Positions 59,687 to 64,000 of a DNA stretch of 64,000 nucleotides are shown here, piece by piece. Below the pieces are notes generated by a model that was not told the DNA's origin, did not search any database, and saw nothing but the letters and a program-made list of their open reading frames with translations. The DNA is taken from the NCBI GenBank assembly GCA_043729515.1, contig JAYTLK010000259.1, positions 1,199 through 65,198 of the forward strand, read 5' to 3'. How positions within the stretch are numbered: position 1 is the stretch's first letter; each line of letters opens with the position of its first letter. Made by a program: the position numbers and the translations under genes. This DNA comes from Herminiimonas sp. (lineage in GTDB: Bacteria > Pseudomonadota > Gammaproteobacteria > Burkholderiales > Burkholderiaceae_D).

Positions 59687-62600
59687 ATGCTTGTATTCAT
59701 TCGGCGGCGCTTTGCTCGTCTGCGTTCTTTTTTGCGTCCCGTGGCGATTGTCGTTGCCTTCACCGGATTCGCGCTGGTGTCAGGCTTGGATTGCCAAGCA
59801 GGCGAAATACCTTCAGCTCAGGCCATCGCAAACGATGCCAGCGATTGCGGCGTGAACATGAGTTGCGGCCCCCGGTCAGCTCAGCCAGCTACGCCTGCCG
59901 GGCCGGCTCAGTGTGGTCCCGCAACTGGCGGAGAGACCTGCACTGCCAACGAAGGTCCGGCCAGTCAGTCTGGCAATAGCGCCAACGTGGGCGCCGGTAA
60001 CCCGATCAACGTTATCAACGGAAACAAATATCAGCGGGAAGTCGATCTTCCTCCATTGCCTGGCGTGCTGGGACTGGAGATCGTGCGGCATTACAACAGC
60101 GCTTACAGTGCTGCGACCGCGCTGCCGGGAATTTTCGGCCGTGGCTGGAAATTGTCATATGACACCGAGTTGTACGCAATCGGCAACACGATCCAGATTT
60201 TGCAGGCCGATGGCCGGCGCGTCATTTTCAGCCGCGATCCGGCCAATCGCGCCATGTGCAGCACGCCTGATCCGGTCCACGGAAAGCTGCGCATTTCCGG
60301 TGCACAGTCCGGCAGATCCGAACGCTATACCTGGACCTGGCCCGACGGTCGAACGCTTGATTTCGATACGAACGGAAAACTCGTACAGATCGCCGTGCCG
60401 AGCGGGGAATTCGTCAGCTTGCTGCGCGATCCGAATGGGTTCTTGTTACAGGTCACCGATCCGCAGGGGCGGCAGCTGCGGCTACACTATCCGGATCGTC
60501 AATCCAGGGCATCGGCGCCTGTTTTTCGCGGTGTCGCGAGCATCGACAGCCCGGTCGGCAAGTTCGGCTACCGGTACGGCACTGACATGCCGCCAGGCGT
60601 CGTTGCAGGCAAGGCCAGTGGCCATGCCAATCTGGTCGGCGTCGATGTGCCTGGCAGTCACCCCAGCCGGGTATATCACTACGAAGATGGTCGCCGTCCG
60701 AACTTCTTGAGCGGCATCAGTCTGGTCGGCGTGGAAAACGGCACCCGGGTGACCCAGCGCATCGGCACATATCTCTACGACCTCAATGGCAGAGCCGTCC
60801 TGACCGTCTCTGGCATGCCTGCACGACTGCAAACGGATGAAACCGGCAAGCCCCGGCAACCGGCGCGCCTGGTTGAAGGAACTGGGGTCGGGCAAGTCAC
60901 GCTTGACTTCACGACTCCGGGATTGACCGTCCTGCACAACAGTCTGGGACAGGCCGTGACCTACCGCCATGCCGTGGTTGGCGGCGAATACCGGTTGCTC
61001 GAAGTCCGGGGTCCTGGATGCAACCGGTGTGGCGAAATGAATGTCCGGTATCGCCACGACCATCTCGGCCGCTTGGTCGAGGTGGTCAAGCTCGACCTGC
61101 GCGGTCAGCCGGTGTCGGCCATCCGCACCGAGCGCGATCGTCTCGGCAGGGTGGTTCAAAGCAGCATGATTCGGTATGCCGGCGGCAAAGTCCTTCCGCC
61201 GCAATTACAAACGCGCTATGAATACCGGGGTGAAGATGCGCAACCTGCTCTGATTGCGCAGCCCGGTGTGGTCTCAATGCGAGAGGCAACCGTTCGCATT
61301 CGCTACAACGAACGTGGTCAGACCGTGGCGGTGACCGAGTCGGGCTGGTCGCCGCCAATCCAGCCGCAAACCATACCCATTGCGATCGAACGCACCACGA
61401 CCTATCGTTACAGCATGATCGGCGGCCGCAGTCTGCTGCGCGAAATTGACGGCCCGCTGGCGAATGGCCCCGCTAACTCTCCCGCCGATTCCGACATCAC
61501 CGTGATCGACTACGACCCGCGCGGCAATTATCCGATCGGCGTCACGATGCCGGGCAATTTCACGCGCAGGATGCGCGAATTCACCGCGGCCGGATTTCCG
61601 GTGTTGGTCGAAAGCGCCGACGGGGTCAATCCGCCGCAGCGGACGCGGATCGAGCGCGATGTCTTCGGGCAGGTCACCAAATCGATCGCGATCCAGAACG
61701 CCAGATCCGCCGAGGATGGCGGCGACAACTGGCTTACACACGTTGCCAGGCAGTTCGGGATCATCGCCGCAGCTGAACCGGATCAGCGCATCACGTGCAT
61801 TGCGTACGATCCCTTCGCGCGGCAGAAACGACTGACCCGGCCGGATGGAACGTTCAGCGAGACTGAATATGACCAGAGCGGTCGCCCGGTTCGAACGCGC
61901 GACCAGGACGGCAACACGGTGACCAGGAGCTTGGACGAAGAAGGGCATCTGCTGACGACCCGGATGCAAAGCAATGTCTCCGGCGCCCATCTGGATGCCA
62001 CAACCCATTACCGGTATGACGAGCAGAACCTGCTCGCACGCACGACCGACCCTTCCGGCGCGGTCACGCACACTGCCTATGACCCGCAGACCGGGCTGGT
62101 TGCCAGCATCACGGATGTGCTTCAGCGGCAGGCCCGCTATCAATATGATGCTGCGGGACGTCTTGCCAACCTGCGGCAGAATGCGCAGTCGGTGCAATCG
62201 GCGTCGACCCGGTTCGACTACGTGGCGGACAAACCTGAGGTCGCCGCCATCACTGCCGCCAATGGCGCCGTTACTCGCATGGTCCGGGATGATTTTGGCC
62301 GTACGCGGGTAGTTGATAGTGCAGACAGCGGCCGCAAGATTTCCGATTACGATGTGGCAGACCGCGTTGTAACGAGCACCGATGCCAATGGAAACAGAAC
62401 GCGTTATACGTATGACATTTCTGATCGGCTGACTGGCAGGGTCACGACTGGCAACGCGTTTGACGGTAGCGCCGCGGTCGAAAGCGTGGTTTATCGGTAT
62501 CGTGGTCGATTGCTGACGGCTGTCGCCAATGGTAGCCAGAGCACCGGATATGCGCACGACGCGGATGGCAGGGTCGTCGAAAGGGTTGACATGATCCGCC

Positions 62601-64000
62601 CGGTAGTCGACTCCGCAGAGAAAGCGCGTGAGCCCATGGTCTTCACGACGCGCTATCGCTACGATGCCGCCGGGCGCATGGTAGCCGAGGTGTTCCCGGG
62701 CAACGATATTCTCAGACTGCGCTACGGTGCAAATGACTATCCGACTGACACTGAACTGGTCAGTGTCGATGGAAAATCGGTCTGGCCGTTGGCCAAGTCA
62801 ATTTTGAGGCATCCGTTTTTCGGGCTGCTTGGTTTCACTTACGGAAACCGGTTGCTGACGACGTTTTTGCATGACGATGCAACCGGCCGGTCAAACCGCC
62901 TGGCAGTCATACAAAATGGAACGAGTGACGACTCTGTCAGCAAGACCTCTTCCTTGCCAACATGGCTACCAAGCGCGTACGCCGGCAACTTGAAGGGTGA
63001 GCTTTCGGCGCGTAAATTTCCCCTGTCACCAATTTACATGCAAGAAATTGGTTACGACCCTGCCGGACGAATCACAAGCATTCTGCGTCAGGACTTGCGC
63101 AGTGATTCGCATGCAACCGAACGCTTTGAGTACGATGTGTTCGACCGTTTAGAAAAGGCAGTGACGACAAGTGAAAACGTCGTCTGGTCCTATGATGCTG
63201 CGGGCAATCGGCTAACCGCAATGTCGGGGACGCCGTCCACGAGTAGAACGAAACCAGTTCAATTGCTGCAGTACTGGCCCGGAAGCAATCGCCTTCAGAC
63301 AGTGACAACGGACGGCAAAGTGCGTTTCTACATCTACGACGGGAGCGGAAACCCTGTCCGCATCGGCAATCGCCGCTTGGTCTACAGCGTCAATACTAGG
63401 TTAAGCGAAATCTGGGAAGGGTCACGACTGATTTCCAGGTACAGCCATAACGCCCGAGGAGAGCGCGTTGCCAAGACGGTGTATGGAGCAGACGGGGTGG
63501 CGCACAACACCTACTACCTGTATGAGGAAAATCACCTTCATGCGGAAGTCGATGGCAAGGGAAGTATTACTGCAAGATACTTTTATTTGGCACATGTACC
63601 TATTGCGAAGTTTGAATACGGGCTGAACGAGCGATCACCTCCAACTGCTCGTGATGCAAAGAAATTTGCGTTTTCAATTAGCCTTTTCGATTGGTTCATG
63701 AAGGAAAAGACTTCGAATCGAGGTCGCCTGTACCCTATCCATACCGACCACCTCGGTACCCCTAGGCTGATGACTGACGCGAACCAAAATATCGTTTGGC
63801 AGGCATCCTATGCCACATTTGGTTCCGGGCTGGTGAAAACAAACTCGATTGCCATGAACCTACGTTATCCTGGGCAATATTTTGATGTCGAGACAGGACT
63901 CCACTACAACTACTTCAGGGATTATGATCCGAGTACGGGACGCTATGTCGAGAGTGATCCAATTGGGCTGGAAGGCGGAATCAATACCTATGGTTATGTC
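59687..64000 (+). CDS. Rhs/YD-repeat family protein, 3'-truncated by the window edge (polymorphic-toxin core)
   Basis: Not in the ORF track because no stop occurs in this frame before 64000. Hand translation from ATG 59687 gives [38 protein letters not shown]..., then [35 protein letters not shown]. It also gives [20 protein letters not shown] and many YD repeats ([30 protein letters not shown]). The 3' end reads [24 protein letters not shown]...[32 protein letters not shown] at the window end. Confidence 0.9.
   Translation, partial: [1438 protein letters not shown]

Follow-up and report, generated by a model that had tools for sequence, protein, structure and literature searches.

Rhs toxins are well known, and those that begin with a signal peptide form a recognised class (Zhang et al. 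2012, PMC3482391, Table 1). Two described toxin domains bear on the present case. Ntox24 is all-beta with a conserved Y, H and H, is of the metal-independent endoRNase type, occurs on RHS, FilH and MuF scaffolds exported by type II, type V and type VII secretion systems (T2SS, T5SS, T7SS), and is partnered by Imm50 or Imm53 (Zhang et al. 2012, PMC3482391). PT7 of Bacillus cereus is an Mg-dependent DNase whose fold was new when solved and whose catalytic residues are D37, H47, H49 and H73 (bioRxiv 10.1101/2021.10.19.465003); a later preprint added an rRNase activity (10.64898/2026.07.31.742022). Here we describe a large rhs gene at the 3' end of a 64,000-nt stretch of contig JAYTLK010000259.1 of Herminiimonas sp. 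(assembly GCA_043729515.1), referred to as the window, and its continuation on near-identical public contigs. We put the probability at about 90% that the gene and the open reading frame (ORF) behind it form an intact Rhs polymorphic toxin-immunity module directed against other bacteria, a figure that does not extend to the biochemical activity of the C-terminal toxin (the tip). It is a standard module inserted after comEC, and its interest lies in the unannotated tip.

Results

The rhs gene and its completion beyond the window

The frame that starts at ATG 59687 on the plus strand runs to the window end at 64000 through 1438 codons with zero stops. The ORF listing that we used omits frames running off the end of the source, which is why this frame is missing from it. 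A preliminary description of the same DNA had guessed as much, on the ground that no stop is reached; it had claimed a frame open for at least 1438 codons and named an in-frame stop between 59687 and 64000 as the finding that would speak against it. Translation revealed no such stop, and the sequence motifs quoted there were all recovered: the plug motif ending in LEIVRHYNS within DUF6531 (amino acids (aa) 104-181), the CxxCG segment as CNRCG at aa 445-449, the repeated YD motifs, and the closing stretch beginning HTDHLGTP, which is the C-terminal end of the in-window translation. The assignment to the Rhs/YD-repeat polymorphic toxins stood as well. Hidden Markov model (HMM) searches gave significant matches to Pfam RHS_repeat (PF05593, E 2.2e-39), DUF6531 (Table 1) and RHS (PF03527, aa 1351-1379, E 2.3e-12) and to NCBIfam YD_repeat_2x (TIGR01643, E 1.6e-33) and Rhs_assc_core (TIGR03696, aa 1375-1438, E 1.3e-17), the last over profile positions 1-63 of 76, where the window end cuts the domain. 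An open frame of 1438 codons that carries RHS, YD and core matches lies far beyond chance. An in-frame GTG at 59663, 8 codons 5' of the ATG, could serve as the start instead; neither codon is preceded by a clear Shine-Dalgarno sequence.

Among 5.8 billion proteins searched, P0001, of 1586 aa, is 100% identical to the translation in BLAST terms, with one residue differing, while the next-best Rhs homologues are 44-45% identical and come from Oxalobacteraceae-type genomes. P0001 is encoded on two public Logan contigs, L001 and L002, which show a single mismatch to the window over 4900 and 4699 nt, respectively, and are identical to each other over 1434 nt past the window end. The sole difference between window and contigs is at 60719, where an A in the window is a C in the contigs and turns Ser into Arg in SGISLVG. 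By means of these contigs the gene could be extended past 64000 and completed: it has 1586 codons, leaves 148 residues beyond the window and would end at window-equivalent 64447 (window = L001 + 59100).

The completed protein carries the second DPFGL motif, the cleavage site, 9-13 codons past the window end, and with the in-window DPIGL and the 18 aa between them this gives the canonical DPxGL-18 aa-DPxGL aspartyl-protease signature (P0001, L001). The full PxxxxDPxGL motif, P1442-L1451 in P0001, ends 13 residues past the window, as foreseen in the preliminary description, which had placed it within about 10-15 residues and had expected a variable tip and then an immunity gene behind it. Both were found, the latter as a small ORF of 150 aa on L001 that overlaps the toxin stop. 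In the precomputed annotation P0001 carries a TEN_YD-shell domain. Among 39 Rhs homologues compared, many different tips follow DPxGL on a conserved core, and both C445 and C448 are invariant in their alignment. YD repeats, core domain, DPxGL signature, and a tip with an immunity ORF, the features by which an Rhs/YD-repeat polymorphic toxin is recognised, are thus all present.

The toxin tip

The 148-aa tail begins with the cleavage motif, followed by a glycine zipper (PF13488) at residues 16-55 of the tail, which scores above the Pfam cut-off, and then by the toxin domain proper, of about 75-80 aa. Beyond the glycine zipper the tip has nothing in Pfam (E ≤ 1) or NCBIfam; PADLOC and PDB sequences gave no match, and PHROGs a chance-level match only (E 0.059). 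The variable and potentially novel part of the locus, which the preliminary description had located immediately past 64000, is therefore indeed unannotated in Pfam, NCBIfam, PADLOC and PDB sequences. A word-indexed search with the tip yielded 10 short relatives. When 1.84 billion cluster representatives were searched exhaustively with a profile, 656 proteins came up at E ≤ 1e-3, of which 196 reach E ≤ 1e-10. In its carriers, which range from 60 to 2563 aa, the domain stops short of the C-terminus by a median of 1 residue. No Pfam family (E ≤ 0.01) covers the tip domain in the 96 members scanned, whose scaffolds are mostly Rhs (25/96), with some DUF637/CdiA-like and TcdB/SpvB ones. Public names of members are 'RHS repeat-associated core domain-containing protein' or 'hypothetical protein' only, and a literature search with the tip motifs found no paper containing them. 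A pattern search and tblastn against viral contigs found no tip relative. In Paraburkholderia, the same tip in P0231 and its relatives (170-330 aa, named 'hypothetical protein') is preceded by a conserved '...PLGDAQPFEY.PD.P.GDSFDIA' segment.

The consensus of the family reads KTPNxGxPGSxxxNPGSGQERxYGxDGxPxxDIDWDHDHGQGxPHxHNW...RGPGxPxSPWP. R25, G31, P33, D36, D38, P48, H49 and W53 (tip numbering) are invariant, Q23, H43, H51 and R63 nearly so, and Y27 is conserved. An AlphaFold2 model built from 49 sequences (mean predicted local distance difference test, pLDDT, 86.4; predicted template modelling score, pTM, 0.73) has five strands, is all-beta and contains no helix. A first model from 10 sequences had reached a pLDDT of 66, and the 26-residue match to the EsaD nuclease obtained with it was discarded as unreliable. 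We also rejected an HNH or His-Me finger nuclease, since the model has no helix and no HNH or Endo VII family was matched by the tip or its 96 scanned relatives.

In a viral structure library the best matches of the model were with MuF-type ('minor capsid') phage proteins and with a 'hemagglutinin', in each case at the C-terminal end, with template modelling (TM) scores of 0.50-0.62 over 72-78 columns (0.60-0.62 for MuF proteins in BFVD). The MuF protein of the Clostridioides phage phiCDKH02 ends in ...QRRYYGNTGKPRLDLDLTDH...VPHKHDW; this end matches the tip profile with an hhalign probability of 95.4% (E 1.9e-8), and the gene is followed by an ORF of 83 aa. Occurrence of one tip on Rhs, CdiA-like and phage MuF scaffolds is a hallmark of a polymorphic-toxin domain.

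Immunity proteins

The 150-aa ORF has 24 homologues, none of them named, and produced only isolated chance-level matches to Pfam, NCBIfam, PADLOC, PHROGs and PDB sequences. All 27 of the 27 tip loci found in reference genomes, which are mostly from Burkholderiales, have an ORF of 119-145 aa directly 3' of the tip, and from this conserved synteny we infer that the 150-aa ORF encodes the immunity protein of the tip. The downstream ORFs of the 27 loci fall into two unrelated families: family 1, with the motif LHDAE...FRCxD..LQNVV...EPSxGA, includes the ORF of our locus, and family 2 is marked by MPVWI...LDEHH. Transitive BLAST clustering also brings the ORF at L004 440-847 into family 1; this ORF has no pairwise BLASTP match to the 150-aa ORF, and we keep it as a distant member only. 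Neither family shows a clear signal peptide, lipobox or membrane helix (19-residue hydropathy peaks at 1.69 across the set, a borderline value, and not at an N-terminus), which points to a cytoplasmic target.

The two families go with different versions of the tip loop between D38 and H49. The loop reads WHxDHGAG in 9 of the 12 loci with family 1 and WDHDHGQG in 13 of the 15 with family 2, a pattern to be expected were the putative active site covered by the immunity protein. At L022 10236-10831 and L025 7391-8229 both families stand in tandem after one tip, and the family-1 immunity gene at L029 6529-6888 is an orphan 2.6 kb downstream; these tandem and orphan genes suggest that extra immunity genes accumulate.

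The N-terminus and genomic context

Residues 1-38 of the Rhs protein comprise an n-region rich in Arg, a hydrophobic core of 17 residues and a cleavage-like site, C-Q-A|G-E, without a lipobox, and we infer from this layout a Sec-type signal peptide. The following linker (aa 39-103), rich in Cys, Pro and Gly, contains no Pfam domain. A hydrophobic N-terminal segment with such a linker is found in nearly all of the 39 homologues and also in complete carriers of the same tip. Neither Pfam nor NCBIfam detected a PAAR, prePAAR or VgrG domain in the in-window translation. The preliminary description was silent on both the signal peptide and the absence of these domains. As signal-peptide RHS toxins already form a recognised class (PMC3482391), the layout is not new in kind.

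The rhs gene lies 132 nt downstream of comEC/rec2, which is preceded by lolCE and lolD (Table 1). We sampled about 27 of the larger ORFs of the 64-kb window, and they are housekeeping or metabolic genes or have no Pfam match; among them are lolCE, lolD, comEC, recJ, a lysS-type tRNA synthetase, hscA, an iscS-type gene, uvrB and pepN as well as malonate decarboxylase and transporters. This agrees with the earlier statement that the window contains no clearly accessory, conflict-system element besides the rhs gene. Type VI secretion system (T6SS) genes were found neither among these ORFs nor, in the case of five complete carriers of this tip, in the 5 kb upstream. In Caenimonas koreensis a signal-peptide Rhs gene with the same tip is directly preceded, on its own strand, by the T2SS gene gspK (L015 4344-5303, plus strand), a single-locus hint of a link to the T2SS. 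Elsewhere in the window, positions 30000-38000 have a G+C content of 0.50-0.56, against about 0.63 for the remainder, and encode a phasin-like protein, a Crp-family regulator, a LuxR-type response regulator and a DctA-type symporter; this could be a second compositionally distinct segment.

The 3' part of the rhs gene appears to be foreign. The G+C content at third codon positions (GC3) falls from about 0.69 in codons 1-1000 to 0.47-0.48 in the last ~300 codons, and the immunity gene has a value of 0.29; comEC, lolCE, uvrB and hscA have values of 0.75-0.81, and the overall G+C content of positions 63001-64000 is 0.504. The drop in the tip and immunity gene fits a horizontally acquired module of core end, tip and immunity gene. 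The last ~65 core residues are 71% identical to the core end of L018, which carries a tip of the same family, and 45-47% identical to those of the closest full-length homologues. Orphan arrays of core end, tip and immunity gene occur at related loci (L015, L021, L011, L017, L029 and L030). The source genome itself is absent from a set of 185,579 species representatives, in which the best match has 73% identity.

Behind the immunity gene our locus continues with a convergent ORF6N-domain gene, and the arrangement of tip, family-1 immunity gene and convergent ORF6N gene has three independent occurrences, being seen also in a Gallionella metagenome-assembled genome (MAG; L004/L012) and in L018. 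In the Gallionella MAG the ORF6N gene is followed by genes for a helix-turn-helix (HTH) protein, a primase and an integrase, and by an orphan tip. The ORF6N gene may mark the border of a mobile element. P0124 is a chimeric ORF in which a fragment of an IS66-type transposase is fused in frame to the same toxin tip, which suggests insertion sequence activity beside orphan tips. Scans for promoters and terminators gave counts at chance level, and only the hairpin downstream of the immunity gene is worth recording. Coordinates of all features are collected in Table 1.

Table 1. Features of the rhs locus and its surroundings. Positions refer to the window unless contig L001 is named; aa, residues of the 1586-aa protein.
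Feature	Position	Strand	Evidence
lolCE, before comEC	53920-55275		Pfam, NCBIfam
lolD, before comEC	55166-56008		Pfam, NCBIfam
comEC/rec2, directly upstream of rhs	56918..59554	+	Pfam, NCBIfam
Rhs gene, 5' part, codons 1-1438 of 1586	59687..64000	+	Open frame, HMM matches, P0001
Predicted Sec-type signal peptide (aa 1-38)	59687..59800	+	Sequence by eye, hydropathy
Cys/Pro/Gly-rich linker (aa 39-103), conserved CGP..GG..C	59801..59995	+	Alignment consensus
DUF6531, N-terminal plug of Rhs shell (aa 104-181)	59996..60229	+	PF20148, E 4.7e-20
YD-repeat shell (aa ~182-1350)	60230..63736	+	RHS_repeat, YD_repeat_2x, TEN_YD-shell
Invariant CxxC (aa 445-448) inside YD shell	61019-61030	+	Alignment of 39 homologues
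Rhs core end (PF03527, TIGR03696)	63737..64000	+	Pfam/NCBIfam
First DPIGL of aspartyl-protease motif	63956-63970	+	Sequence
Cleavage motif	L001 4908-4940	+	P0001/L001 sequence
Glycine zipper (PF13488)	aa 1454-1493	+	Pfam, 28.2 bits, cut-off 25
Toxin domain (aa 1507-1586)	L001 5105-5344	+	P0001/L001
Toxin stop	L001 5347	+	
Putative immunity ORF, 150 aa, ATGA overlap with toxin stop	L001 5347-5799	+	Contig translation
Hairpin, 16-bp stem, T-run	L001 5856-5898		Scan
Convergent ORF6N-domain gene, cut by contig end	L001 6333..5932 (window-equivalent 65032-65433)	-	Pfam

Discussion

Taken together, the parts of the locus suggest the following mode of action. The 1586-aa Rhs protein, which has no PAAR domain, would leave the cytoplasm of the producer by its N-terminal Sec-type signal peptide. 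By homology to solved Rhs cocoons, the DUF6531 plug and the YD-repeat shell would enclose the toxin, and the DPIGL-18 aa-DPFGL motif present in the sequence would cut after L1451 and free a tip of 135 aa. The glycine-zipper stretch may then help the tip to cross or insert into the inner membrane of the target. Once in the target cytoplasm, the all-beta domain would act as a nuclease through a metal-binding site formed by R25, D36-x-D38, H43 and P48-H49-x-H51-x-W53. The producer itself would be protected by the 150-aa cytoplasmic protein from the overlapping ORF, as the conserved synteny suggests. Judged from composition, the last ~300 codons and the immunity gene were probably gained horizontally and displaced an earlier tip.

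That the tip is a metal-dependent nuclease, as the invariant residues rich in D and H and the weak resemblance to PT7 suggest, we hold tentatively and as slightly short of an even bet. The best PDB fold match of the model is PT7 itself (8owu_B; Foldseek probability 0.84, rmsd 5.6 over 62 columns), and in a manual alignment only, D38, H49 and H51 of the tip fall at strand-loop-strand positions analogous to PT7 catalytic residues. For this comparison the PT7 sequence was rebuilt from published primers, a fragment was confirmed in the PDB, and full sequences were taken from Bacillus plasmids. A wider proposal is speculative and on balance doubtful: the tip would represent an undescribed, widespread superfamily of all-beta metal-dependent nucleases of about 75 aa, a distant structural sister of PT7 with D-x-D, H and H-x-H ligands, which moves among Rhs, CdiA-like and MuF scaffolds together with two interchangeable immunity families and which in Burkholderiales would be delivered by Sec-exported, T6SS-independent Rhs cocoons entering through a hydrophobic or glycine-zipper segment.

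A number of points count against parts of this picture. The sequence past 64000 belongs to near-identical contigs and not to the window's own record; the signal peptide was called by eye and from hydropathy only; and only 64 kb of the genome are visible for the absence of T6SS genes. The Foldseek match to 8owu_B has an E-value of 0.42 and TM scores of 0.44/0.46, below 0.5, a search of PDB sequences with the tip profile finds nothing, and PT7 H73 has no counterpart in the tip. Profile comparison by hhalign gives probabilities of 0.2% against PT7 and 1.2% against a PT7 profile. Owing to these low probabilities and the missing H73 we reject membership of the PT7 family and keep a PT7-like action as a working hypothesis. 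Kinship between immunity family 1 and PIM7, the immunity protein of PT7, was not detected either (hhalign probabilities 3% and 0.4%); the correspondence of 'WD17AW' in PIM7 with 'LHDAE' in family 1 is attractive by eye and unsupported by hhalign. In passing we noted that stand-alone PT7-family genes on Bacillus plasmids (L033 838-1074, L037 601-837) and chain B of PDB 8owu are labelled 'transposase', which appears to be a propagated misannotation.

The best placed of the alternatives, which we nevertheless regard as unlikely, would make the tip a metal-independent endoRNase instead of a DNase, belonging either to the Ntox24 type or to a divergent branch of that type. The published description of Ntox24 as all-beta, with Y, H and H, on RHS, FilH and MuF scaffolds and with Imm50 or Imm53 (PMC3482391) recalls several features of the tip, namely the all-beta model, the conserved Y27 and H49/H51, and the Rhs, DUF637 and MuF carriers. 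Imm50 is moreover the only recurrent Pfam family among the immunity proteins, with sub-threshold matches in 8 of 34 family-1 members, but the best of these (E 0.019) stays below the cut-off. No Pfam Ntox model matches the tip (E ≤ 1) or its 96 scanned relatives (E ≤ 0.01), where we assume, as detection of the domain has been reported by others (PMC7777525), that Pfam-A contains the Ntox24 model. Stand-alone members are named 'hypothetical protein' by NCBI, and the two invariant Asp together with three His look more like a metal site.

We consider it quite unlikely that the Rhs protein is T6SS cargo, carried despite its hydrophobic N-terminus by a VgrG, PAAR protein or chaperone encoded elsewhere. 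Its closest solved relatives are all T6SS-linked Rhs proteins, by sequence 8qja (1.5e-38), Tse5 (2.6e-32), RhsA 7q97 and Tre23 7pq5, and the 64-kb limit already mentioned leaves room for distant T6SS genes. Speaking against T6SS delivery are the missing PAAR, prePAAR and VgrG domains, the lack of T6SS genes both in the sampled ORFs and upstream of the five carriers, the conservation of the signal-peptide-like N-terminus across the clade and the one carrier that directly follows gspK.

It is improbable, in our view, that the tip kills at the membrane, with the glycine zipper forming a pore or depolarising the cell and the beta domain serving as an accessory or binding module. The Gly-zipper_Omp match is above the Pfam cut-off, and a hydrophobic or glycine-rich stretch lies between DPxGL and the tip domain in most Rhs carriers. 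The sequence of this stretch is nonetheless not conserved, and carriers of the stand-alone, MuF and 'DAQPFEY' kinds do without it; strong conservation is seen instead in the beta domain, which includes the invariant polar residues. Clear membrane helices are missing from the immunity proteins, unlike those that typically protect against pore-formers, and the immunity type tracks a loop of the beta domain. A periplasmic zinc hydrolase, such as a LAS-like peptidoglycan or lipid II enzyme, would fit Sec export from the predicted signal peptide, a D..D..H..HxH arrangement that could bind zinc and the VanY or DUF2235 lipase-type tips of Rhs homologues in the same clade, but is very improbable given that both immunity families are devoid of signal peptides and lipoboxes, that no peptidase family matches the tip or its 96 relatives, and that phage MuF carriers enter the cytoplasm with the injected DNA (PMC5576092).

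With Rhs toxins so well known, the gene itself adds little. What is of value is a compact toxin domain that public family libraries do not recognise, that has several hundred relatives and that is found on three unrelated delivery scaffolds. This makes the tip a tractable candidate, whether for a toxin activity not yet described or for a further branch of the PT7-type nucleases, themselves a recent discovery. The two unannotated immunity families, which the toxin loop appears to track, offer a ready system for studies of specificity. The Burkholderiales clade of signal-peptide Rhs proteins further raises the question of the route by which such proteins are exported and delivered in Gram-negative bacteria.

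Comparison with known systems

Compared with the T6SS Rhs cocoons, i.e. Advenella VgrG-Rhs (8qja), Pseudomonas aeruginosa Tse5 (8cp6), P. protegens RhsA (7q97) and Photorhabdus Tre23/Rhs1 (7pq5), the protein described here shares the YD shell, the core end, the double DPxGL motif, a variable C-terminal toxin and a downstream immunity gene. It differs in having no PAAR, VgrG or prePAAR domain and instead a Sec-type signal peptide, as predicted, with a Cys/Pro/Gly linker, and its similarity to the solved proteins falls mainly in aa 1139-1437. In its predicted signal peptide, RHS repeats, polymorphic tip and immunity gene it resembles the Sec/T2SS-class RHS toxins (Zhang et al. 2012, PMC3482391) and Gram-positive WapA.

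Among known toxin domains, the MuF tip of phiCDKH02 (gp30) is a true homologue, with 40% identity over 53 columns. It keeps Q-x-R-x-Y-G..G-K-P..D-x-D...D-H...P-H-x-H-x-W and is followed by a small ORF, while it sits on a phage head scaffold, belongs to another phylum, has a longer loop and is without the RGPGxPxSPWP tail. Ntox24 with Imm50, compared by its published description, shares the all-beta fold, Y/H/H and the range of scaffolds as well as the weak Imm50 signal; the predicted chemistry of the tip, a metal site, sets it apart from the metal-independent RNase. PT7 with its partner PIM7 (Nachmias et al.) has in common with our tip that it is a small (~78 aa), mostly beta polymorphic-toxin tip with a strand ending in I-D, a loop of 9-10 residues and a strand starting H-x-H-x-[YW]-D. 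The tip has in addition the invariant or nearly invariant R25, H43 and R63, and PT7 rides on LXG and pre-toxin TG scaffolds in Bacillota.

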